Positions 34,384 to 52,641 of a DNA stretch of 64,000 nucleotides are shown here, piece by piece. Source of the stretch: an uncultured Opitutales bacterium (lineage in GTDB: Bacteria > Verrucomicrobiota > Verrucomicrobiia > Opitutales > JABDGR01); contig CAZLRH010000002.1 in assembly GCA_964562015.1 (NCBI GenBank), forward strand, positions 24,021 to 88,020. Reading direction: 5' to 3'. Numbering within the stretch: the stretch's first letter is position 1; the number at the start of each line of letters is the position of its first letter. The notes under the pieces are model-generated. The model saw only the letters and a list, made by a program, of their open reading frames with translations. It was not told where the DNA came from and searched no databases. The position numbers and the translations under genes are program-made.

Positions 34384-35697
34384 ATGCGATTCACCTCCCG
34401 TCGTTGTTTATGGCTTTCGCTGACTGCCCTGGCCTTGGGGCTGGCCACGGTGTTTTCCGGCGCGGCCGTGTCCGGTGCCCCGGCCGCTTCGCCACTGCCC
34501 CATTTTCTGATCACCGACCATGGCGCGGTGGGCGACGGCACGACGCTGAACACCGCGGCGATTCAGCAAACCATCGATGCCGCCGCCGCCGCGGGCGGGG
34601 GTGTGGTCGAAATTCCCGCGGGCAAATTTCTCAGCGGTTCTCTCTTTTTGAAAAACGGCGTGGAGTTGTACCTGGATACCGATGCCGTGTTGCTCGGTTC
34701 GCAAAACATTGAGGATTACCCGAAGCGTCCGACCCGCGTGGAGGGCCATTTTCCGGAGTGGCGCATGGCGCTTGTGAACGCGCAAAACATGAGCCGCGTG
34801 CGCATCGGCGGCACGGGCCAGCTCAACGGCAATGGCGCGCCGTTTTGGGCGCTGTTTTATGCCCAGCGGCGCGCCAACCCGAAAACCACCAACCTGGATG
34901 TCGAGCGCCCGCGCCTGGTGTTCATCGACCGCTGTCAGGACGTGCGCGTGGAAAATGTTTCCTTCCAGGACTCCGGTTTTTGGAACCTGCATATGTACAA
35001 TTGCCATAATGTGCTGATCGAGGGCTTGCACATCAACGCACCGCCGATGACCCCAAGCACCGACGGCATGGACATCGACAGTTGCCAGAACGTCACCATC
35101 CGCCACTGCCAAATTTCGTGCAACGACGACAACATTGCGCTCAAGGGCAGCAAGGGTCCGCTCGCCGACGTGTACGTCACCGACGGCCCGCCGGTGGAAA
35201 ACATTTTGATTGAGGATTGCGAATTCGGCAACGGCAACGGTGTCATCACCTGCGGCAGCGAGGCCACCATCATCCGCAACGTCACCGTGCACAATTGCAC
35301 CATCACCGGCCGCGCCAACCTGCTCACCCTCAAGTTGCGCCCCGACACGTCCCAGCACTACTCGAACATCACCGTGGATGGCGTCAAGTCCACCGGCACT
35401 GCGGGCAGCTTTTTCAACGTCGCGCCGTGGACGCAGTTTTACGATTTGGCCGACCAGCCCGCGCCGCCGCCGCGCGAAATCGCGCACGTCACCGTCCGCA
35501 ATATCACGGGCAATTTCGCCCAACTCGGCTCCCTGCGCGGTAATCCCGACGATACTCTGCGCGACATCACCATTGAAGACGTGGATATCAACACCGGCGG
35601 CCGCCCCCTCCTGCTCGGTGACGTGGAAAAGCTCACGTTCAAAAACGTGCTCGTCAATGGCGAGGCGTATGATCCGACGAAGCCGACAGAGCCGTAA
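34384..35697 (+). CDS. glycoside hydrolase family 28 (polygalacturonase-like, parallel beta-helix)
   Basis: Signal peptide. NTDGMDIDSCQNVTIRHCQIS, CNDDNIALKG, GNGNGVITCGS are the GH28 signature blocks (NTDG / G-DD / G-HG analogues). Confidence 0.85.
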   Translation: MRFTSRRCLWLSLTALALGLATVFSGAAVSGAPAASPLPHFLITDHGAVGDGTTLNTAAIQQTIDAAAAAGGGVVEIPAGKFLSGSLFLKNGVELYLDTDAVLLGSQNIEDYPKRPTRVEGHFPEWRMALVNAQNMSRVRIGGTGQLNGNGAPFWALFYAQRRANPKTTNLDVERPRLVFIDRCQDVRVENVSFQDSGFWNLHMYNCHNVLIEGLHINAPPMTPSTDGMDIDSCQNVTIRHCQISCNDDNIALKGSKGPLADVYVTDGPPVENILIEDCEFGNGNGVITCGSEATIIRNVTVHNCTITGRANLLTLKLRPDTSQHYSNITVDGVKSTGTAGSFFNVAPWTQFYDLADQPAPPPREIAHVTVRNITGNFAQLGSLRGNPDDTLRDITIEDVDINTGGRPLLLGDVEKLTFKNVLVNGEAYDPTKPTEP

Positions 35698-35823
35698 TGA
35701 AGAAACCGGCCATGCCGGAAAAGTTACAATAGATAGTTTAAGGTGAACTGGGCGGAACCCGCCCGGCCCTTGCGCTTTCTTATGGTTATTTTCCGGGTTC
35801 TGGTTAAACTTATCACCCTGCCC

Positions 35824-36900
35824 ATGAAGATACCTTTTTTCTCCCGCCCGGCCACGAGCCTCGTGACTTTGCTCGCCACCGGCTTGGCCCATGGCCAAGC
35901 CACCCCCGCCCCGTTGTATCCGCCGCCGGCCGCGACCTCGTCGGTGCCCGCCTCCACGGTCCCGTCGGCCCCTGCGCCCGCCCCGGTCGCTCCGGCCCCG
36001 GCCACCGTTATTCCCACGGTGCCCCCGGCCACAGCCGCCGCCACTGCGACGGCGGACGCCGCCGCGCCGACCCCGCAACGTGATACCCTCGGTGTGAGCG
36101 ACATCAAAGTACTCCCGGCCTTGCTCACGGAAGCCCGGCGCAACGGCACCTCCAGCGCCCTCGAGCGCGTCGCCCAGTCGCTGGACAGCCAGCTCATCGC
36201 CGCCCTCGGCTCCACCCGCAAATTCCAATTGGTGGGCCGCAGCGACCTCGACGTCATTCTCAAGGAGCAATCGCTCTCGAATTCCGGCACGGTGGACGAC
36301 GCCTCCGCCGTGAAGATGTTCAAGCTCGCGGGCGCGACCTACATCCTGACCGTCAGCATCGACAATTTCCAGGACCGCACTGAAACCGCGACCTTCTCCG
36401 CCCTCGGCGAGCAGGCCCAGCGCCGGAAGGTCACACTTTCCTGCATTGCCAAAATCTATTCGGCACAATCCGGCAAGCTCCTCGAATCCGCCAACATCCA
36501 GCTCGACCAGACGGACGCCCGCAACGACCCGAATTACATCGCTTCCGCCGGCTCCAATTGGGCCGACAAACTGCTCGTGGATCTCGCGCGCACGGCCTCG
36601 GAAAAAATCGCCCAGAGCGTCACCGACTCGCTTTATCCCGCCAAGGTGGTCGCCAAAACGGACAAGCAAATCACCCTCAATCGCGGCGAGGGCACCGGCA
36701 TCGCCGTCGGCCAGACGTGGATCATTTATAACGTGGGCAAGGAGCTCATCGATCCCGACACCGGCCTGAGCCTCGGCCGCGAGGAAGTCGCCATCGGCAA
36801 GGCCAAAATCACCTCCGTCACGCCGCGTACCGCCCTCGCAGAATTGACTGAGGACCGCGGCGTCGCGCCCTTGAACACCGCCCGGCAAACGGATCAGTAA
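35824..36900 (+). CDS. periplasmic CsgG/LPP20-like (TolB-N-like fold) protein with Pro/Ala-rich N-terminal linker
   Basis: Signal peptide MKIPFFSRPATSLVTLLATGLAHG. Core KFQLVGRSDLDVILKEQSLSNSGTVDDASAVKMFKLAGATYILTVSIDNF resembles the CsgG/LPP20/LpoB-N family pattern. Family assignment tentative. Confidence 0.45.
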   Translation: MKIPFFSRPATSLVTLLATGLAHGQATPAPLYPPPAATSSVPASTVPSAPAPAPVAPAPATVIPTVPPATAAATATADAAAPTPQRDTLGVSDIKVLPALLTEARRNGTSSALERVAQSLDSQLIAALGSTRKFQLVGRSDLDVILKEQSLSNSGTVDDASAVKMFKLAGATYILTVSIDNFQDRTETATFSALGEQAQRRKVTLSCIAKIYSAQSGKLLESANIQLDQTDARNDPNYIASAGSNWADKLLVDLARTASEKIAQSVTDSLYPAKVVAKTDKQITLNRGEGTGIAVGQTWIIYNVGKELIDPDTGLSLGREEVAIGKAKITSVTPRTALAELTEDRGVAPLNTARQTDQ

Positions 36901-36953
36901 ATTCCCCGCCTGACCGCTCGGGACTCTTTCGGAAATCTTCCGCGCCCAGCCCG

Positions 36954-38408
36954 ATGAAACCTTTTAGCGTGCTCGGCGGAGCGATTTTGGCCCTCCTGTT
37001 GGGCGGCTGCGCGACGTATAAAGATGACACGGAAGGGCTGCGCACCGCGTGGGCCGCCGGCAATGTGAAACAGGCCGCGCAAATCGCGGGCTCAAACGCC
37101 GAGCAAAAGAAGGGCTCCGGCACGGCGCTGCTGTGGTATCTGGAGGACGGCGCAACCACGCGGGCCGACGCCCAATTCGACCGCAGTCTGGCCGCCTTCA
37201 ACCAGGCGGACGCGAAAATCGATTATTGGGACAGCCAGCCCGCGGTGTCCGTCTCCGCCGAGGCCGCGGCCATCATGGTCAACCAGACGGTGCTTTCCTA
37301 CCGCGGCACCTCCTATGATAAAATCATGGAGAGTACTTATCAAGCGCTGAACTATCTCCAGTTGGGCCAGCCCGACCAGGCCCGCGTCGAGCTGAACCGC
37401 GCCCGTGAGCGCCAGCGCGCCGCGGTGGAGGCCAATGCCGCCCGCATCGCCTCGGCCCAGGAAGCCGCCGCCGCCGCCTCCAACGGCACCTTGAACGCGA
37501 ATTCCGCGGCCGCGAACAAGACCGCACCCGAGGATTCTTATGACGTGCAGCGCGCGCAAAATGATCCCGGATTCAAGGCCAATCTCCAAAACGCCTACGG
37601 CTCGCTCGACGGGCTCCACTACTACACGCCGTACGTGAATCCCTTCAGCGTTTTTCTCGAGGGGATTTACTTTCTGGCGCGCGGCGACACCGGCGCGGAC
37701 CTCGAACGCGGGCGCGTGGCGCTCAACCAGGTGCGCAGCCTGACCGGTGACAATCCCTTCATCAACGCCGATTGCGACCTTGCGGACAAGATGGCGAACG
37801 GCGCGCCCCTGCCGGAGACTACCTATGTCATCTATGAAACGGGCATGGCGCCGATTCGCGATGAAGTGCGGATCGACATTCCGCTTTTCATTGTTAGCCG
37901 GTCGGTGCCGTACGTCGGGGTGGCGTTTCCGCAACTGCGGTTCAACAGCCAGTACAACCCCGGCCTGATCGTGCAGGCGGGCAAGGGTGAACCTCTGCGC
38001 ACCGTGTTGCTGTGCGACATGGATCTCGTGATTGCCCAGGAATTTCGGAACGAATTGCCGGTCATCATTGTCAAAACCCTTATCTCCGCCGGTGCCAAGG
38101 CGGCGGCCCAGTACGGCCTCTACGCCGCCACCAAGGGCAACAACGCCCTTTCCCTGTTCGCGGAAATCGGCGGCACCCTCTACCAATTCGCCACCAACCG
38201 CGCCGACTTGCGCACGTGGGTCACCCTGCCCAAGCAGTTCGTGTATTGCCGCCTGCCCACCCCCGCCGACCGGAAACTCCAACTCACCAACCAAGGGACC
38301 GGCCTGACGCAGACTGTTGACCTCCCGCCGGGCGTCGTTACCATTGTGTACGTCAAAAGCAACACCTTCGCTGACCGCCTCCTCGTCAATACCTTTACCC
38401 TTCGTTGA
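36954..38408 (+). CDS. hypothetical lipoprotein (484 aa)
   Basis: Lipobox ALLLGGC. No confidently recognised domain. Tightly linked (4-bp gap) to the YcfL-like gene. Confidence 0.5.
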   Translation: MKPFSVLGGAILALLLGGCATYKDDTEGLRTAWAAGNVKQAAQIAGSNAEQKKGSGTALLWYLEDGATTRADAQFDRSLAAFNQADAKIDYWDSQPAVSVSAEAAAIMVNQTVLSYRGTSYDKIMESTYQALNYLQLGQPDQARVELNRARERQRAAVEANAARIASAQEAAAAASNGTLNANSAAANKTAPEDSYDVQRAQNDPGFKANLQNAYGSLDGLHYYTPYVNPFSVFLEGIYFLARGDTGADLERGRVALNQVRSLTGDNPFINADCDLADKMANGAPLPETTYVIYETGMAPIRDEVRIDIPLFIVSRSVPYVGVAFPQLRFNSQYNPGLIVQAGKGEPLRTVLLCDMDLVIAQEFRNELPVIIVKTLISAGAKAAAQYGLYAATKGNNALSLFAEIGGTLYQFATNRADLRTWVTLPKQFVYCRLPTPADRKLQLTNQGTGLTQTVDLPPGVVTIVYVKSNTFADRLLVNTFTLR

Positions 38409-38411
38409 CCC

Positions 38412-38840
38412 ATGAAAAAATCCGCCCTTCGCATTTTCGCCGCCGCCACGCTGGGCCTTGCGTTGCTCGCCGGTTGCTCGACCGTCAATACCGTCGAGCC
38501 CGCCAATCCGCAGGCCCGCCCCAACCGCGTGGACGACAAGCGCATCATCACCGACTCCGACCTCAACGACATCGCCTACGTGCAAAATGTTTATGAGACC
38601 ACCGTCAGCGGCAATCTCAAGCGCGTGCAGGTGACGATCCGGAATCTCACTTCCACGGTAAAAAACGTGAATTACAAATTCACCTGGTTTGACGGCCAGG
38701 GCATCGTGGTGGATTCGCCGATGAGCCTTTACCAGTCCGTGTCCATCGAAGGCGGGGCTTCCTTGCCGCTGACCTCGACCGCGCCGAATCCAAAGGCCGT
38801 GGACTTCAAACTCGAACTGCTCGGCTCCGTCCGCCGCTAA
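38412..38840 (+). CDS. YcfL-like (DUF1425) lipoprotein
   Basis: Lipobox LLAGC. Size (142 aa) and the pattern NLKRVQVTIRNLTSTVKNVNYKFTWFDGQGIVV...SIEGGASLPL fit the YcfL family. Confidence 0.5.
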   Translation: MKKSALRIFAAATLGLALLAGCSTVNTVEPANPQARPNRVDDKRIITDSDLNDIAYVQNVYETTVSGNLKRVQVTIRNLTSTVKNVNYKFTWFDGQGIVVDSPMSLYQSVSIEGGASLPLTSTAPNPKAVDFKLELLGSVRR

Positions 38841-38855
38841 CTTTCTCCCTTCTCC

Positions 38856-39458
38856 ATGAAAACCTCCCCTCTTTTTCTCGCTGTACTCCCTGCGCTGCTG
38901 CTGGCCGGTTGCGGCTCGCCGCCGAACTCGGCCCAATACGTGGACCCGAACGGCCCGCGCACCATCGTGTCGCTGAACCAAATCGACATCCAGGATTTCA
39001 ACGGCGCCGCCGCGACGATGACCCAGTCGCTCCTCAACAGCGGGGTGCTCGAAAAAGCGCCGACGCAACCGGCGGTGATGGCCATTTCGCGCATCACCAA
39101 CGACACCGGCCAGCAATTTGACACGGACTACCTGATCAAGAACATCCGCGTGGCGCTGAACAACAGCGGCAAAGTCGTCACCACCACGACCACCGGCCTC
39201 GGCGGCAAGGCGGAAGACCCGCTGGCCCGCGACGCCGGCAACATGCAGGCGTTCATGCAGGGCCAGCCGGCGCCCTCACGCATTCCCTATTACAGTTTGT
39301 CAGGCAAGATTCTCGCCAGTACCGCCAAGGCCGACGACATCTACCAACGCACGTACACATTTCAACTGAGCCTGACGGAAATTGCCTCGGGCAATGCCGT
39401 TTGGGAGGATCAAAAGCAAATCACCAAGCAAGGCAAACAGCCGGCGGTCGGGTTTTGA
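38856..39458 (+). CDS. LpoB-like lipoprotein (penicillin-binding-protein activator LpoB family, COG3417-like)
   Basis: Lipobox LLAGCGS. PTQPAVMAISRITNDTGQQFDTDYLIKNIRVALNNSGKVVTTT resembles the LpoB globular domain. Adjacent to a ycfL-like gene as in E. coli ycfL-lpoB. Confidence 0.5.
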   Translation: MKTSPLFLAVLPALLLAGCGSPPNSAQYVDPNGPRTIVSLNQIDIQDFNGAAATMTQSLLNSGVLEKAPTQPAVMAISRITNDTGQQFDTDYLIKNIRVALNNSGKVVTTTTTGLGGKAEDPLARDAGNMQAFMQGQPAPSRIPYYSLSGKILASTAKADDIYQRTYTFQLSLTEIASGNAVWEDQKQITKQGKQPAVGF

Positions 39459-42122: not shown

Positions 42123-44006
42123 TCATGCCGTGGCCTCGGTCGGCGTCGGGGCTGGCGGCGTCTCAGCCGCGGCTTTGGCCGCCGTTTCCTGGCGCAGGCG
42201 CCGGTAATCGTCGAGCTTGCGTTTGCGCAAGTCGTCCGCCTGGGATTTGACTTCAGCCTCGATGGCGAATTCCTCGCGCACGACTTCCATGTCCTCGATG
42301 TCGGGCGGCACGGTGCCGATGGCTTCCTCGAGGGTGGAAAAACCCGCGCGCACTTTTTTCATGCTGTCCTGGTGCAGGGTGGACATGCCGTTCATCATCG
42401 CGATGCGCTTGATCATGGCCGTCTCGGCCTCCTTGTTGATGGCTTCGACGAGGGCTTCGCTCGTGCCCATCAATTCATGGATGCCCACGCGGCCCTTGTA
42501 GCCGGTGCGGTTGCAGGCCGGGCAGCCCTCCGGGTTCGCGCGGAAAATCTGGCCGCGCCATTGAATCGCCTTGAGCAGAATCTCCGCTTCGCGGCCCACC
42601 GGTTCGAAAGGCTGCTTGCAGGCCTTGCACACGCGCCGCATGAGGCGCTGCGCGCACACACACACAAGGGAGGCCGATACCATGAACGGCTCGACTTCCA
42701 TCTCCGTGAGGCGCGCGACCGTCGAAGGCGCATCATTGGTGTGCAGGGTGGAAAAAAGCATGTGGCCGGTGAGCGCAGCCTCGACCGCGATGCCCGCAGT
42801 TTCCTTGTCGCGAATTTCGCCGACGAGGATGATGTCCGGATCCTGGCGCAAAAAAGCGCGCAGCGCGGTCGCAAAAGTCAGGCCGATCTTGCGGTGCATC
42901 TGCATCTGGCACAGGCCCGGGAGCGTGTATTCAATTGGGTCCTCGGCGGTGCGGATGACCAGGTCCGGCGAATTGATTTCATTCAACGCCGAATAAAGCG
43001 TCATGGACTTGCCGGAGCCGGTCGGGCCGCAGTGCAGCAACATGCCGAACGGCCGCTGGAGCAATTCGCGATAAAGCATCAAATTCTCGGGCTCAAACCC
43101 CAGCGCGGGCAGCGGCAAGGTGGATTTCTGCTTGTCCAGAATACGCATGACGACGCCTTCGCCGTGATTCAACGGGGCCGTGGAGATGCGCAGATCGATG
43201 TCGAGATTCTTGCGCGTGTGCTGCTTGAAAACAATACGGCCGTCCTGCGGCAGGCGCTTTTCCGCAATGTCGAGATTCGCCATGACTTTCAGGCGGGCAA
43301 TGAGCGCGCCGGAGACCTTGGCCGGAATCGTCAACTTTTCCTGGCAATTGCCATCGATGCGGACCCGCACCCGGGTGGATTTCTCGAACGGCTCGATGTG
43401 AATGTCGCTGCCGCCCGAGTAATAGGCGTCCTCGATGATGCGGTTGGCCAGTTGGATGATGGGCGCGGAATCCTCGCTCTCCATGCCATTCTCGATGTCT
43501 TCCTCCGTGGTGGCCTCGTCCATGCCGAGCGCCTCAACGACATCGCCAAAGCCCTCGGAATGGGTCGGCTCCTTTTTCTCGTCCAACAATTCCGCCAGCT
43601 CGGATTCCACCGCAAGCAGGAGGGCCACTTTCTGGCGGGTGAGTTCCTGAATCTTGTGGGTGACCTGGAGATTGAACGGGTTGGCCAGCGCCACGATGAG
43701 AAAGCTGCCGGCCTGACCCACGGGCAGCACTTTATTTTCGCAGCAGAAATCACGATCCAGTTTTTGGAAAGTCAATTCGTCCACCTGGAAATTGCGCGCA
43801 AAAAACGGGCTGAGGCCGAAGGCGCGGCTGCGGGCGATGTGCAGGGCGGGATCCGATATCTTGTACTCCGTCTGCAAAAGTTTGCCGAGCCCCTCGCCGG
43901 ACATGTCGGCCGAGGAATTGATCAAGGCGGTGGCCTGCTCCTCCGTCAATTTGCGGAGGGACTTCAAGTGGTTGACGATGGAGGCTTGGATGCGCGCAAG
44001 TGCCAT
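42123..44006 (-). CDS. GspE/PilB-family secretion ATPase (type II secretion / type IV pilus assembly ATPase-like) with charged C-terminal extension
   Basis: GSPII_E N-domain. Walker [13 protein letters not shown]. Asp box. Walker [13 protein letters not shown]. His box [12 protein letters not shown]. Tetracysteine CKACKQ...[12 protein letters not shown]. An extra acidic/Lys-rich tail of about 60 aa (...[25 protein letters not shown]...PTEATA). Confidence 0.85.
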
Positions 44007-44181: not shown

Positions 44182-45516
44182 TCAGGCGCCCGGAATCAAT
44201 TCGGGATAAATCAGCGAAAGGTCGTCGAGGTTGCCGATGCTGCCGAGCAAGGCGGGATCGATTTTGAAATTCTTCAGGAGGGCCACCGGCTCGACACCGG
44301 CCCGGCGCGCGGATTCGGCGATAAATTCCCGTTGCTTGGCAATCAAATAAGATTCCATCCTATCCGGCACCACGCTTTCGTCGGTCGCGAGGAGTTTGGC
44401 GGCGTCGGCGCCGGCCAGCGGCGGCACATGCTCGGTGGCGACCACGCGGCGCGCGACGTCCACCACCTCCAGATAGTTACCGGGCCAGGCGTAACCGAGG
44501 AGCGTCGAAACGGCCTCGGGCGACAATTGCGCGCGCTCGGCGTCGCCTTCGCGGCGGGAAAACAAGTCCAGGTGCAGCTTGAGGTAGGTGGCCAGGTCCG
44601 CCAGGCGCTCGCGCAACGGCGGCAGGACGATGAGGTGGTTCTTCACCACGTCGAACATCTCCGGGCTGCTTTCCGGAAGCATCTGCGGGTAGCGCGTGAT
44701 ATCGAGGAAGAAAACCCAGGAAACCTCGCGGCCGTTGGGCAGGAATTTCGGGTCCGCCGCGAGCAGCTTTTGCACGAGCTCGATTTGGCCGCGCGTGGCC
44801 TCGCCAAAATCCGTGATGGCCACGAGCTTGCTCACCGCGGTCTGGCCCGGCAGTTCGCGAATGGCCTGCAAGACTTCCAGCGATTCAATCTGCGCGATGG
44901 AAAATTGATGAATGGGCAGCCCCGCAAAGCCGTACCAGCCGGACAGTTCGCAAGTGATCAACTCGATTTCTGCGCCGGGCGGCAGGCCCACAAATTGATA
45001 ATTACCCGAACGCGAGGCGTCCCACAATTGCTGGGCAAAATGCTGCGAGCCCTCGGTCGCGTCGGCCAAATGCACCAATTCGGGATAAGTCCGAACCCAG
45101 GCATCTGACGTGCCCTCGGGCTTGGGCTGGGCCGCGGCGCGCTCCTCTTCGGACATGGGCTGCACGAACCGGCGCACGTGGTTGAGGAACGCTTTAATAT
45201 CGAGGGGCTTTTCCAGGACAAGCGTCACATCCATGTTGGCCACTTTGACCAGCTCGGGGGTGTTCATCAGCCCGGACACCATGATGATTGGAAGATTCGG
45301 CAAACGGGCGCGGGCGCGCTCCATGAAATCCGCGCCGTCCATCACCGGCATTTTGTAGTCGGCGATGACGAGATCGAATTCCTCGGCATCGAGCGCCTTC
45401 AAGGCATCGTGGGGCCGGGTCACCATTTCTGTGCGGAAGCCCTCCTGCACGAGCAAGTCGCGCAGCATTTCCGCATAGTTTTCCTCGTCGTCGAGGACTA
45501 GAATTTTACCAGACAT
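44182..45516 (-). CDS. response regulator: receiver domain + degenerate sigma54-activator-like AAA+ domain (predicted ATPase-dead)
   Basis: REC: ILVLDDEENYAEML...DLVIADYKMPVMDG...IIMVSG. Central domain aligns to NtrC-type AAA+ but Walker A is GLPPGAEIE (not GESGTGKE). Walker B is FFLDI (not FLDE). GAFTGA is WYGFAGL. LPPLRERLADL and YAWPGNYLEVVDVARRVV are retained. Confidence 0.65.
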   Translation of the reverse strand: MSGKILVLDDEENYAEMLRDLLVQEGFRTEMVTRPHDALKALDAEEFDLVIADYKMPVMDGADFMERARARLPNLPIIMVSGLMNTPELVKVANMDVTLVLEKPLDIKAFLNHVRRFVQPMSEEERAAAQPKPEGTSDAWVRTYPELVHLADATEGSQHFAQQLWDASRSGNYQFVGLPPGAEIELITCELSGWYGFAGLPIHQFSIAQIESLEVLQAIRELPGQTAVSKLVAITDFGEATRGQIELVQKLLAADPKFLPNGREVSWVFFLDITRYPQMLPESSPEMFDVVKNHLIVLPPLRERLADLATYLKLHLDLFSRREGDAERAQLSPEAVSTLLGYAWPGNYLEVVDVARRVVATEHVPPLAGADAAKLLATDESVVPDRMESYLIAKQREFIAESARRAGVEPVALLKNFKIDPALLGSIGNLDDLSLIYPELIPGA

Positions 45517-45729: not shown

Positions 45730-47076
45730 ATGTTAGGGACTTTCCTGACCCGAATTATTCCAACGGCTGGAGTTTTTTGCCTGCTCGCGCCGGGAGCCGG
45801 CCACGCGGATGAAACGCCGGCACCCCCTTCCTCTGTCTCCGCGACTCGACCTGCGGATTGGGGGCGGCTTGACCCCTGGAAAAAAACGCTGACGGCCGAA
45901 GAGTGGCGCGAGGCGTTGAACCAGCGCTATGCACCTCATGACACCGCCGATGGGTTGATCGATGTGGGTGGTGACGCGCTTTACACCCGCCTCCAAACCA
46001 ACGACTCAATCCACTATTACGCGTTGGTCCTTCGCGACCCGGCGCAGCCGCGCCCCACCGCCCCGCCGGGCGCGCGCTACTGGCGCACGCGGGCCGAGCT
46101 TCCGCCGATTTCAGACGGCCTGCCGCTGGCGGGTTTGCGGATCGCGCTCGATCCCGGCCATTTGGGCGGCCCTTGGGCGGACATGGAAGAGCGTTCGTTT
46201 TCCGTAAAAGGCGAACCCCCGGTCCACGAAGGCGATTTGACACTGCAGGTCGCCCTGTTGCTCAAACCCCGCCTCGAAGCGCTGGGCGCGACAGTGCTGC
46301 TGGTGCGGGACCGCACGGAACCCGTTACCACCGACACGCCCGCCTCGCTCCGGCCCACTGCGACGACCGCGTATCTCGCGCGGTTTACGCCCGACCACCC
46401 CGCCCCGCCGCCCGGCGACGCCGCCCGCGAACACGACATTACCAAATTGGCGGAATTGCTGTTTTACCGCACCAGCGAAATTCTGGCCCGTGCGCGGCGC
46501 GTGAATGACACGCTTCATCCCGACCTCGTGGTATGCCTTCACTTTAACGGCACGGATTTGCCCGATCCGCAGAATCCCACGCTCGTGCCACAGCAGCATT
46601 TTCACGTCATGGTCAACGGCGCGTATGCGCGCACGGAATTGGAAAACGACGACGAGCGCCTCGAGATGCTCGAACGCATCGCCGACGGCGCGGGCGAGGA
46701 AGAACTGGCGGCGGCACGGGAGATGACCGAAGCGGCGGTGCCAATTTTCGACCTGCCTCCCTTCACTTACAATGGCACGAACGCGGTGGCGCTCGGGGCC
46801 CACGGCTACCTATGGGGCCGCAACCTGCTGGCCAATCGTCTCTATCGCTGTCCGGTGGTTTATTTCGAGCCCTACGTGATGAACAGCGCTGAAGGTTATG
46901 CGCGCATTCAGGCCGGTGACTATGCCGGCACCCGCGAGTTCAACGGACACGAGCGGCAGAACATCTTTGCCGAATACGTGGAAGCCGTGACCGCGGGACT
47001 GGTGAATTATTATGGCGGCCGGCCGGTGGCGCCGACCGAACCGGTGCAAAATATTCCCAACGCACGCCCGCGGTAG
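45730..47076 (+). CDS. N-acetylmuramoyl-L-alanine amidase (Amidase_3 family), secreted
   Basis: Signal peptide. RIALDPGHLGG...EGDLTLQVALLLKPRLEALGATVLLVRDRTEP matches the Amidase_3 pattern (DpGHGG...E...l.la..l...L...G..V.ltR). Pro-rich N-terminal region. Confidence 0.65.
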   Translation: MLGTFLTRIIPTAGVFCLLAPGAGHADETPAPPSSVSATRPADWGRLDPWKKTLTAEEWREALNQRYAPHDTADGLIDVGGDALYTRLQTNDSIHYYALVLRDPAQPRPTAPPGARYWRTRAELPPISDGLPLAGLRIALDPGHLGGPWADMEERSFSVKGEPPVHEGDLTLQVALLLKPRLEALGATVLLVRDRTEPVTTDTPASLRPTATTAYLARFTPDHPAPPPGDAAREHDITKLAELLFYRTSEILARARRVNDTLHPDLVVCLHFNGTDLPDPQNPTLVPQQHFHVMVNGAYARTELENDDERLEMLERIADGAGEEELAAAREMTEAAVPIFDLPPFTYNGTNAVALGAHGYLWGRNLLANRLYRCPVVYFEPYVMNSAEGYARIQAGDYAGTREFNGHERQNIFAEYVEAVTAGLVNYYGGRPVAPTEPVQNIPNARPR

Positions 47077-50740: not shown

Positions 50741-52441
50741 CTAGCGTTTTCGCTTACGCAGCAAAACCAGTCCGCTGGCGCCCAGCGCCATGACCAAGGC
50801 GACCGTGGATGGCTCGGGCGCGGGGGTGTAAGTGAAATTGCCCGGGTTGAGCGTGATTTCGACATACATGTTGTCCAACGCGGAGGAGGAGTTGAGCGGA
50901 TTGTAAAACACATCCGGGTTGAGGCCGCCTTGGATGCGGTCGGAAAAAGCGAAGGTGTAGGCATCGGTTTGCGTGGCAAACGCGCCGGAGTAGGAATTGT
51001 AGAACTCGGGGTTGATCTGAATACTGCTGCCCACCCACTTGGCGATGTCGGTATTATTCCCCTGCAAGGAAAGGAGATAGAAGAACTGACCGGAGGACAG
51101 GTTGCCGATGGTCAAATTGGCCGAGGCGTTGCCCGAGGCAAAGATGGAATTATTAAGGTTGGTCGTGGTGCTTGTGTTCCCCGCATGGCCCAAAACGGTT
51201 TCCCCATTGGTGGCCAGGCCGAAATTGAGATCCGCCATGAGGTCGCCCACCACCCGGTCCATGAGATTGTTGGAATTCACCGTGCTGACCGCGGTGCCAT
51301 TCCAATAGGCGACGTAGCTGGGGTTGGCGCCATAGATGCCGTTGATGTTGTCGAGTTGGGAATCCGTGACGAAAACATCGAAGCTCCCGACACTTCCGCC
51401 CGAGCCACTGATGATGACTCCGGAGCTGCTGCCCGTGATACCCTGGCCGCTGAGCGCAGCTATCTCGGTGCCGCTCAGCCCAGCCGTGAGGTTGGACTTA
51501 AAAGTGGCGTTCATGTTGTAGCTTTGATTTTGCAGAAAAAGATTGCCGGTGTCCGCCGGAAAGGGGGTGGTGCCCTGTCCCGCCTGGGTGCCGGCGTAAC
51601 CGAAAATCGTGCCCGCCAGCCGTTGTCCGCCCGGGGGCGTAAAGCTCGAGATGTTTAGCGAAATATTATTGCTTCTCATCCACGGGATGAGGGCAGTATT
51701 GCCGACGTTGCCGGTCGCGGGCGCGAGCCAGCTGTGATAATCAGCAATCGGAGGGACGCCGACGATGCGGGCCGTGCCGCTCAAATTACCCAGCGTGGCG
51801 CCGCTGGAATTGACCACGGCGTAGTTGGCGGCGATACGGGCATCGAGCGGCGTGACCACGGTACTGGCGGTCAGGAGATTAAAAATGGTCGGACCGGGCG
51901 TGGTGTTGATCTCGTTCGCCTGTCCGGGGAGCGTGACGAGGCTGCCATCGGCGCGCGATTTGATGGCAAAGTCCGCCGGCATGCTGACGAAGTTCACATA
52001 CGAGGTGTCCACGTTGTTTTGCGTGCTCCCCGCATTGATGTAGGTTTCGAAACGCGCGGACACCAAGGGGTCGGTGGACCCCGGAGTGTTGCCGCCAATC
52101 TGCGTGCCCGCCGTGAAATCAATAAAGCTGTTATAGAAAGTTCCGATATTGACCGTGGAAACAATCCCCGTGGGCCCGCCGGCCCCGGCGCCGGAGACTG
52201 TGCCATACAAGTCCGCGAGGCTGTAAGAAGTGGACAGTGCACCAGCACTGCCATTGCCGAGAGTCACGTTGCCAAACACCGTTGCGCCGCCGCCGACAAA
52301 GGTCAGGTACAGGGCATCATCCGGGATGCCGGTGTTGTTGACGATGACCAGTTGGGTCGTGTTGTTTTGAGCAAAAGCGGCCGGACCAAGCAATCCAGCG
52401 CCCAGCGCGAGCGAAACGGACACAAATAAACGCAGCTTCAT
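50741..52441 (-). CDS. PEP-CTERM-anchored secreted protein, Asn/Gly/Thr/Ser-rich (beta-helix-like)
   Basis: Signal peptide MKLRLFVSVSLALGAGLLGPAAFA. C-terminus PAPEPSTVALVMALGASGLVLLRKRKR is a canonical PEP-CTERM sorting motif (PEP, TM helix, basic tail). Confidence 0.8.
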   Translation of the reverse strand: MKLRLFVSVSLALGAGLLGPAAFAQNNTTQLVIVNNTGIPDDALYLTFVGGGATVFGNVTLGNGSAGALSTSYSLADLYGTVSGAGAGGPTGIVSTVNIGTFYNSFIDFTAGTQIGGNTPGSTDPLVSARFETYINAGSTQNNVDTSYVNFVSMPADFAIKSRADGSLVTLPGQANEINTTPGPTIFNLLTASTVVTPLDARIAANYAVVNSSGATLGNLSGTARIVGVPPIADYHSWLAPATGNVGNTALIPWMRSNNISLNISSFTPPGGQRLAGTIFGYAGTQAGQGTTPFPADTGNLFLQNQSYNMNATFKSNLTAGLSGTEIAALSGQGITGSSSGVIISGSGGSVGSFDVFVTDSQLDNINGIYGANPSYVAYWNGTAVSTVNSNNLMDRVVGDLMADLNFGLATNGETVLGHAGNTSTTTNLNNSIFASGNASANLTIGNLSSGQFFYLLSLQGNNTDIAKWVGSSIQINPEFYNSYSGAFATQTDAYTFAFSDRIQGGLNPDVFYNPLNSSSALDNMYVEITLNPGNFTYTPAPEPSTVALVMALGASGLVLLRKRKR

Positions 52442-52641
52442 AGTGGCAATGTGGGTAGCTAATTCGACTAAATGGGTCAACGCGCAAAACATGGCTCAAA
52501 GCAACCCTTTGTCATACTCGTCGCCAGGCCCGACCTGCTGGATTTCGATTGGATGATGTACGGCATCGCTTAGTTTGACTCGACGACGCAGAGCTTGCGG
52601 CGGTAACAATCTAGTCCCGCTCCTTAATTCTATTTTACTTC

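Follow-up and report, generated by a model that had tools for sequence, protein, structure and literature searches.

A conserved COG3014-YcfL-LpoB lipoprotein operon preceded by a FlgT/TsaP-like protein in an Opitutales bacterium, with a possible role in envelope maintenance

We analyzed a stretch of 64,000 nucleotides from an uncultured Opitutales bacterium (contig CAZLRH010000002.1, positions 24,021 to 88,020), hereafter the window, and in it a cluster of four co-directional open reading frames (ORFs) on the + strand at 35824-39458, whose products are designated p1 to p4 (Table 1). The cluster consists of a trio of lipoprotein genes of the COG3014, YcfL/DUF1425 and LpoB families (p2, p3 and p4), preceded by a gene for a secreted FlgT/TsaP-like protein (p1); this identification of the module leaves little room for doubt. 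Synteny of the trio is retained in Verrucomicrobiota, Planctomycetota, Alphaproteobacteria and Gammaproteobacteria. The explanation that we prefer, with a probability of about 0.6, is that the locus is an instance of an ancient, self-contained operon of envelope lipoproteins whose products act as an envelope-maintenance complex. The functional part of this explanation, a periplasmic complex with an inferred mechanism, is advanced more tentatively.

The original prediction for this DNA, made from the letters and the ORF translations, described four consecutive + strand genes, and the ORFs lie exactly at the coordinates that it gave. Direct reading of the sequences finds export signals in all four products and lipoboxes in three of them, p2, p3 and p4. 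The proposed YcfL/DUF1425-like and LpoB-like identities of the third and fourth products agree with profile searches. The CsgG/LPP20-like label of the first product holds for CsgG, with no LPP20 match at E <= 1, and the second product, which had been left without a family, belongs to COG3014 by the names of its homologues.

Conservation of the trio in distant bacterial lineages

Metagenome contigs encode an identical set of proteins. The relatives of p2 nearest in sequence (62-64% identity) are found in metagenome-assembled genomes (MAGs) of Opitutales, and homologues at 40-50% identity, from Cerasicoccus, Rariglobus and Puniceicoccales, are named "COG3014 family protein" by NCBI. A search of 1.84 billion sequences with a profile of 50 p2 homologues collected 5,556 representatives at 50% identity with E <= 1e-3, and 1,127 at E <= 1e-30. 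A scan of a collection with one genome per species, using two peptide patterns typical of proteins of the Planctomycetes-Verrucomicrobia-Chlamydiae (PVC) type, gave at least 461 confirmed relatives, a lower bound because only these two patterns were searched. LpoB, DUF1425 and COG3014 are widespread, and the cluster does not stand outside its usual taxonomic context, as had been supposed; it is an ordinary, well-conserved member of its family and not a misplaced enterobacterial system.

Gene order was examined in the 80 best loci, in which ORFs were called and then compared with profiles built by jackhmmer from p1 to p4. The cluster is indeed shared by relatives: the p2-p3-p4 trio is adjacent and co-directional in 70 of the 71 loci with enough downstream sequence, and p1 lies directly upstream of it in 53 of 74. 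Within Verrucomicrobiota, the trio loci come from Opitutales, Puniceicoccales, Verrucomicrobiales, Limisphaerales/Pedosphaera and Akkermansia, and within Planctomycetota from Phycisphaeraceae and the anammox family Brocadiaceae (Brocadia, Jettenia, Kuenenia, Loosdrechtia); Methylomirabilota and Acidobacteriota contribute a single MAG each. Chance does not account for the arrangement, which is found again in dozens of independent genomes. Two MAGs labelled "uncultured Bifidobacteriaceae" (loci L054 and L065) carry a complete five-gene module of the PVC type; since this is a module of the diderm envelope, the label of the bins is probably wrong, or the bins are contaminated.

All-against-all clustering of the ORFs in the 80 loci revealed only two recurrent flanking neighbours, a PEGA-domain protein and a small Gly-rich lipoprotein. 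The PEGA gene is located 5' of p1 in 43 of 66 loci (among L003-L082; for example L041:3582-4967, L030:3792-5021 and L003:2420-3637). It encodes a secreted protein of 400-470 amino acids (aa), in which an N-terminal domain distantly related to p1 is accompanied by PEGA (Pfam, E 6e-10) and a conserved C-terminal helical region; the protein has no relative in PDB. The small lipoprotein, of about 115-170 aa, accompanies the module in 22 loci, in many of them immediately 5' of the PEGA gene (L041:3153-3557, L069:3321-3761, L072:5438-5839). It has a glycine-zipper-like segment and the conserved motif HMVRYWRTETTADGRTIQVPYDILVDQYGRP, and no match in Pfam. According to tblastn, both genes are absent from the window. 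Genes for penicillin-binding proteins (PBPs), Tol-Pal, flagella, pili or secretins, and curli or Hfa do not recur beside the module in the 80 loci. With no other recurrent neighbours, the module is self-contained.

Proteobacterial relatives and the E. coli ycfL-lpoB locus

A tblastn search of a plasmid collection with p2 gave two records, plasmid p1 of Azospirillum sp. TSH100 and a replicon of Aeromonas caviae; an LpoB search of the same collection gave the query itself only. The order on the Azospirillum plasmid is COG3014 - YcfL - LpoB - DUF6844 - p1 homologue. The p2 homologue is full-length (hhalign probability 100, E 1e-50), and its neighbours are annotated "YcfL family protein" and "penicillin-binding protein activator LpoB", the latter matching LpoB of Pfam at 1.8e-39. 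The homologue of p1 (hhalign probability 97.8, E 9e-13) includes the C-terminal barrel described below, so p1 accompanies the trio in more than one phylum. The DUF6844 protein (L084:7376-8722), placed between lpoB and the p1 homologue, was considered as a counterpart of the PEGA protein, and hhalign finds it unrelated both to that protein and to p1; a member of this family, FTL_0572, is listed among the antigens of Francisella (PMC13649117).

In Aeromonas caviae the order is hinT-COG3014-ycfL-lpoB-thiK-like (L085, NZ_AP026896.1, 3086680-3097063). The hinT product is 79% identical to HinT of E. coli. The COG3014 lipoprotein, which starts at about position 4917 in L085, aligns with p2 at hhalign probability 99.9 and E 5e-33; the ycfL product matches DUF1425 at 3e-27 and the lpoB product matches LpoB at 3e-52, and the gene after them codes for a ThiK-like kinase of the APH family. 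The record itself, of 4.9 Mb, is clearly a chromosome, yet it is filed as "plasmid pKAM479_3" and is almost unannotated.

In E. coli K-12 the order is hinT-ycfL-lpoB-thiK-nagZ, and hinT abuts ycfL; when the Aeromonas hinT+COG3014 stretch was searched at the DNA level, all 5,426 complete E. coli genomes matched its hinT part only. The E. coli hinT-ycfL-lpoB-thiK locus is thus the trio locus minus COG3014. It resembles the window in having a YcfL (DUF1425) gene directly 5' of an LpoB-family gene, both with lipoboxes, and differs from it in having neither a COG3014 gene nor a counterpart of p1. The original prediction had remarked that the adjacency of ycfL and lpoB mirrors the arrangement in E. 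coli, and the Aeromonas intermediate indicates that this likeness is true homology of loci.

The COG3014 and YcfL lipoproteins

The lipobox of p2, LLGGC, places the lipid anchor at Cys19, which is invariant in the alignment of 50 orthologues. Comparison of p2, whole and in halves, with Pfam and NCBIfam produced only sub-threshold noise from TPR and YfdX, and its sequence profile has no relative in PDB. The AlphaFold2 (AF2) model of the protein is of high confidence (pLDDT, the predicted local distance difference test, 89.9; pTM, the predicted template modelling score, 0.90). In this model the N-terminal half, aa ~20-285, is predicted to consist of TPR-like helical repeats, and the C-terminal domain, aa ~286-484, of beta-strands arranged round a long, moderately hydrophobic helical hairpin (aa 356-414). 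The C-terminal domain has no counterpart of solved structure among the matches listed.

The small p3 protein, with lipobox LLAGC and a Cys22 that is invariant in 32 orthologues, is assigned to DUF1425 by Pfam with confidence (2.7e-19, 69.3 bits against a cutoff of 28.3). It is a small Ig-like beta-sandwich: the profile of its orthologues matches PDB structures 3o0l (1e-11) and 4gio (2e-6), the second of which is the structure of Cj0090 from Campylobacter jejuni (PMC7857515). The motif Y-[RK]-F-x-W-[FY]-D-x-x-G is common to p3 (YKFTWFDGQG) and E. coli YcfL.

The LpoB-family subunit and the activation of PBP1B

Membership of p4 in the LpoB family is clear. The protein matches Pfam LpoB (PF13036) along the whole profile (all 147 positions; E 1e-23; score 84.3 bits, cutoff 22.3), has a lipobox LLAGC with Cys19 invariant in 35 orthologues, and contains a globular domain of the LpoB fold at aa ~41-190. 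By profile comparison, its best relative of solved structure is LpoB of E. coli/Salmonella, although the profile of p4 orthologues reaches E. coli LpoB (2mii) at an E-value of 0.01 only.

The most serious alternative to the explanation given above is that p4 is a functional LpoB: anchored in the outer membrane, it would span the peptidoglycan to activate a class A PBP of the organism, and YcfL and COG3014 would assist it as accessory proteins. The full-length Pfam match, the identity of the closest solved structure and the synteny of the locus with a real lpoB locus via Aeromonas all favor it, as do the names that NCBI gives to the orthologues from anammox Brocadiaceae and from Azospirillum, "penicillin-binding protein activator LpoB". 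However, p4 is below the cutoff of the NCBI equivalog model for LpoB, TIGR02722 (90.7 bits against 110.55); PVC orthologues score 93-106 bits, the Azospirillum protein 145 and E. coli LpoB 218.

The linker of p4, between the lipid-anchor Cys and the fold, has about 22 residues, and the median among 119 homologues is 23; a MAFFT alignment of E. coli LpoB with p4 and with the PVC, Aeromonas and Azospirillum proteins shows a Pro-rich linker insertion of about 45 residues in the E. coli protein alone. In the proposed model of PBP1B activation, LpoB bound to the outer membrane stretches through pores in peptidoglycan to the UB2H domain (PMC3060616), and linker length matters because this model needs such reach. 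Residues at the binding interface may argue in the same direction. Binding of PBP1b by E. coli LpoB involves S157, A164, Y178, S180 and E201, and the E201R replacement abolishes it (PMC12279963). In p4 these positions align to M, S, S, A and N, and E201 aligns to Leu in 30 of 35 PVC orthologues, in both cases at about 25% identity, where the alignment of loops is unreliable.

The UB2H domain itself is reported to be strongly conserved in enterobacteria only (PMC3060616). A class A PBP gene was not found in the window by tblastn with E. coli MrcB, and no PBP gene recurs near the module. Taken together, the TIGR02722 score, the short linker, the apparently divergent interface residues and the additional C-terminal tail described below make p4 unlikely, as judged from its sequence, to be a PBP1B activator of the E. 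coli type, and regulation of PBP1B in the E. coli manner, one of the roles originally considered for the fourth gene, is not favored. We regard the functional LpoB explanation as a whole as unlikely too, while it is the best of the alternatives.

At its C-terminus, p4 has the tail KQGKQPAVGF (nucleotides 39426-39455), of the general form KQGKxxxVG[F/W]-COOH. All 120 of the 120 closest p4 homologues end in F or W, and the tail is also present in LpoB of Aeromonas and Azospirillum. E. coli LpoB is without the G-[F/W] tail, and E. coli is the sole lineage examined that is also without COG3014.

LpoB and UB2H have been reported as confined to enterobacteria at stringent cutoffs (Typas 2010, PMC3060616), a claim that arises because a 100-bit cutoff was used to define orthologues. 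Such confinement is consistent with the view of E. coli LpoB as a specialized derivative.

Related lipoproteins in Campylobacter and Helicobacter

The trio has likely relatives in Campylobacterota, and in comparing them we take COG3417 to be the COG of the LpoB family. The cj0089-cj0090-cj0091 operon of C. jejuni encodes three lipoproteins of 453, 122 and 207 aa (PMC3100323), which agree in order and roughly in size with the window proteins of 484, 142 and 200 aa. The middle protein is connected to p3 by the match of the p3 orthologue profile to the structure of Cj0090 (4gio, 2e-6). Cj0091 has a COG3417 domain, at that time called the "SpaP" adhesin domain (PMC3100323), and its H. pylori orthologue HP1457 has been called an LpoB homologue (PMC11394524). 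Cj0089 and its H. pylori homologue HP0018 have been described as TPR lipoproteins (PMC3100323, PMC11394524). It looks like cj0089-91 is the same trio as p2-p3-p4. There are also differences: a p1-like gene is not reported for the cj0089-91 operon, and in H. pylori the HP0018 and HP1457 genes are dispersed.

In cell fractionation, Cj0089 is recovered with the inner membrane and Cj0091 with the outer one (PMC3100323). The H. pylori HP0018 mutant hypervesiculates, shedding chains of outer-membrane vesicles, and is less helical; HP0018 co-immunoprecipitates with MltD and AmiA (PMC11394524). A mutant in cj0091 adheres less well to INT 407 cells and is poorer in early colonization of chicks (PMC3100323), and on these grounds the LpoB-like lipoprotein could be a surface adhesin, as was proposed for Cj0091. 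This is quite improbable: the module is kept in free-living bacteria of soil and freshwater and in anammox bacteria, where adhesion to a host is irrelevant, the fold family (LpoB, TolB-N) is periplasmic, and the cj0091 defect could be indirect, by way of envelope damage; surface exposure was not established by the authors. The published phenotypes of adhesion, vesiculation and cell shape all come from host-associated Campylobacterota.

The FlgT/TsaP-like protein p1

The p1 protein begins with a type I signal peptide (aa 1-24, MKIPFFSRPATSLVTLLATGLAHG|Q; cleavage at LATGLAHG|Q), followed by a linker of about 60 residues rich in Pro, Ala and Thr (aa ~25-85), a domain of the TolB-N/LpoB/CsgG fold with a long polar beta-hairpin (aa ~86-270), and a beta-barrel similar to FlgT_C and TsaP (aa ~271-358). 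Its AF2 model, with the disordered linker left out (pLDDT 79.6), shows three very long strands in an alpha/beta domain, which is followed by a long helix and a small beta-barrel. The linker seems to be specific to an Opitutales subclade, because more distant orthologues (e.g., L041) are without it. In the closest relative with a long contig, p1 is duplicated in tandem (L003:3685-4734 and L003:4921-5940), both copies having similar Pro/Ala-rich linkers.

In Pfam, the best match of p1 is CsgG (6.5e-12, 45.6 bits against a cutoff of 20.8), restricted to profile positions 26-143 of 210, and the second is LpoB (3.4e-5); a resemblance to LPP20 is not seen at E <= 1. The match to FlgT_C is weak, with an E-value of 0.057 for the C-terminal part of p1 and 0.0024 for one orthologue, and neither p1 nor its orthologues match FlgT_N, FlgT_M or FlgT_C above the Pfam cutoffs. 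Similarity to TsaP is more evident: a profile of 30 p1 orthologues matches the C-terminal region of TsaP (6ve2_O, 3e-7; 3jc8, 1e-4). The relatives of p1 by fold are the FlgT-like chain 8z5n_5, TsaP, PelC, CsgG and TolB-N, many of which build periplasmic rings; the LPHT-ring chain is taken here as FlgT from its length and from the weak FlgT_C/FlgT_M matches of p1 orthologues. A close paralogy of p1 and p4 was considered and dropped, as their hhalign comparison is not significant and the fold alone is in common.

Like FlgT and TsaP, p1 combines a TolB-N-like domain with a beta-barrel of the FlgT_C/TsaP type, and the module could serve as a ring or scaffold accessory to a flagellar motor or to a type IV pilus/secretin machine, in the manner of FlgT/FlgP/FlgO or TsaP. 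Apart from the matches to TsaP and, weakly, to FlgT_C, this possibility draws on a MshEN/T2SSE-type ATPase gene that lies 2.7 kb downstream of the cluster on the opposite strand. In contrast to TsaP, p1 has no LysM domain, and, unlike both TsaP and Vibrio FlgT, it has no flagellar or pilus gene context in its vicinity in the window or in related loci. Since no flagellar, pilus or secretin gene recurs by the module in the 80 loci, proximity of the ATPase is not conserved, and all matches to FlgT_C and FlgT_M are under the Pfam cutoffs. The module is, moreover, present in Akkermansia, a non-motile lineage. A dedicated role in motility or pilus machines is thus quite improbable.

The least probable of all explanations is that p1 is an outer-membrane channel of the CsgG/HfaB type, which would let the operon secrete a polysaccharide or a fibre similar to curli or holdfast: such a role is suggested by the Pfam match above the gathering score, the alpha/beta core fold shared with CsgG and the database names of p1 orthologues ("CsgG/HfaB family" or "curli ... 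secretion channel CsgG"), but p1 covers the profile only in part and, unlike CsgG, lacks a lipid anchor, membrane-spanning hairpins and genes for curli partners nearby, as curlin, CsgE/F or Hfa-like genes do not recur beside the module. There is no Cys after the signal peptide of p1 and no invariant Cys in alignments of 30 or 52 orthologues, so the lipobox is missing throughout. The predicted long hairpin (aa 173-213, DNFQDRTETATFSALGEQAQRRKVTLS) is charged and polar, with many D, E, R, K, Q and T residues, which, as judged from the sequence and the AF2 monomer model, argues against an amphipathic membrane-spanning hairpin. The missing lipobox, the polar hairpin and the partial profile coverage suggest that p1 is not a membrane channel of the CsgG type.

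Proposed function and evolution of the module

In the envelope-maintenance explanation, p1-p4 would assemble in the periplasm as a single complex, located on the inner side of the outer membrane and perhaps reaching across to the inner membrane. The TPR domain of the COG3014 protein would be the scaffold, to which the LpoB-like subunit may bind by its invariant C-terminal G-[F/W] tail; since the tail is seen with COG3014 and is absent without it, docking of the tail to TPR is a concrete hypothesis. By analogy with its structural relatives, p1 may oligomerize through its beta-hairpin and beta-barrel. The complex would position or modulate peptidoglycan-remodelling enzymes, either synthases or hydrolases, and would set the spacing or coupling of the outer membrane and peptidoglycan. 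Such a function seems the most plausible because of the relationship to LpoB and the Helicobacter phenotype. The membrane fractions of Cj0089 and Cj0091 and the co-immunoprecipitation partners of HP0018 also speak for the explanation. The complex would not activate a UB2H-bearing PBP1B in the manner of E. coli LpoB; the PBP1B function in enterobacteria would be a later specialization, with a long linker acquired and the tail and COG3014 lost. The suggestion of a broader, uncharacterized envelope complex, made in the original prediction, stands.

Several points weigh against this explanation. In 21 of the 74 loci p1 is not directly upstream of the trio, and it may be an accessory protein and not an obligate subunit. 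The link between the tail and COG3014 may be less firm than it appears, as there are very few independent contrasts and a single lineage, E. coli, in which both are absent. Membership of p4 in Pfam LpoB still allows a role in PBP activation. The homology of p2 to Cj0089 and HP0018 is one that we infer from operon position, size, lipobox, TPR motif and COG name. Finally, MltD and AmiA are called unconfirmed as partners of HP0018 by the authors of that study (PMC11394524).

A more ambitious version of the envelope-maintenance explanation, which we hold to be somewhat more doubtful still than the functional assignment, is that the trio is an ancient periplasmic machine shared across phyla, in which tail docking holds the subunits together, with a PVC form extended by the FlgT/TsaP-like, PEGA and Gly-rich proteins and with enterobacterial LpoB as a recent derivative. 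If this version is true, LpoB did not "recently evolve" from nothing. Few regulators of cell-wall synthesis are known to act from the outer membrane; LpoB is among them, and is usually called an enterobacterial novelty. The present locus and its relatives show that the lpoB locus is a reduced form of a much older operon, which has three to six genes and spans Verrucomicrobiota, Planctomycetota (anammox bacteria included), Alpha- and Gammaproteobacteria, and, as the literature implies, Campylobacterota. The only phenotypes for the older operon are those of Helicobacter (hypervesiculation, shape) and Campylobacter (adhesion, colonization). Aeromonas has a bona fide lpoB locus together with COG3014, and would let the role of COG3014 and YcfL in activation of class A PBPs be tested directly.

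What is already known are the database names of the parts (CsgG/HfaB, COG3014, YcfL, LpoB) and the homologous operon studied in Campylobacter/Helicobacter. In the literature on COG3014, DUF1425, DUF6844, COG3417, COG5633 and the YcfL family, we found no description of the whole module, no published description of its extended PVC form (p1, PEGA protein and small lipoprotein), and no published statement that the enterobacterial ycfL-lpoB is a reduced form of the COG3014 operon.

Locus layout and neighbouring genes

The intergenic gaps p1/p2, p2/p3 and p3/p4 are 53, 3 and 15 nucleotides. Alternative starts exist for p1: an in-frame GTG at 35743 gives the ORF of greatest length, and on identical contigs gene callers place the start upstream, for a product of 372 aa. 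Promoter and terminator scans of the locus gave nothing informative. Two long antisense ORFs run over the cluster (Table 1), and no homologues of their own were found for them. They look like shadow ORFs, usual for coding DNA of about 62% G+C; ORFs of this kind also form clusters in related loci, solely because they mirror conserved genes.

Table 1. Coordinates of the module and of other features in the window.
Feature	Position	Strand	Description
p1	35824-36900	+	Secreted, non-lipidated periplasmic protein (predicted)
p2	36954-38408	+	COG3014-family lipoprotein, 484 aa
p3	38412-38840	+	YcfL/DUF1425-family lipoprotein, 142 aa
p4	38856-39458	+	LpoB-family lipoprotein, 200 aa
Antisense ORF	34408-36888	-	826 aa, over the cluster; looks like a shadow ORF
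Antisense ORF	37092-39116	-	674 aa, over the cluster; looks like a shadow ORF
MshEN/T2SSE-type ATPase	42123-44006	-	2.7 kb downstream of the cluster
Response regulator	44182-45516	-	Downstream of the MshEN/T2SSE-type ATPase
Amidase_3-like protein	45730-47076	+	448 aa, 6 kb downstream of the cluster; match below threshold
PEP-CTERM protein	50741-52492	-	583 aa

Upstream of the cluster in the window, genes for a GH28 protein and an SGNH hydrolase occupy the place that the PEGA gene has in related loci. Downstream, the segment 39622-44006 contains purN (+), then folK-folB-folP (-), then the secretion/pilus ATPase of the MshEN/T2SSE type. None of the downstream genes (purN, the fol genes, the ATPase and the response regulator) is kept beside the module in other genomes. 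The 448-aa protein encoded further on has a sub-threshold match to Amidase_3 (E 5.8e-5, 23.6 bits against a cutoff of 27); the proximity of its gene is not kept in relatives, and it is mentioned here since HP0018 co-immunoprecipitated with AmiA. The organism had been described as PEP-CTERM-bearing, and the window indeed contains one such protein, of 583 aa, which ends in a classic C-terminal PEP-CTERM sorting signal (...TPAPEPSTVALVMALGASGLVLLRKRKR).

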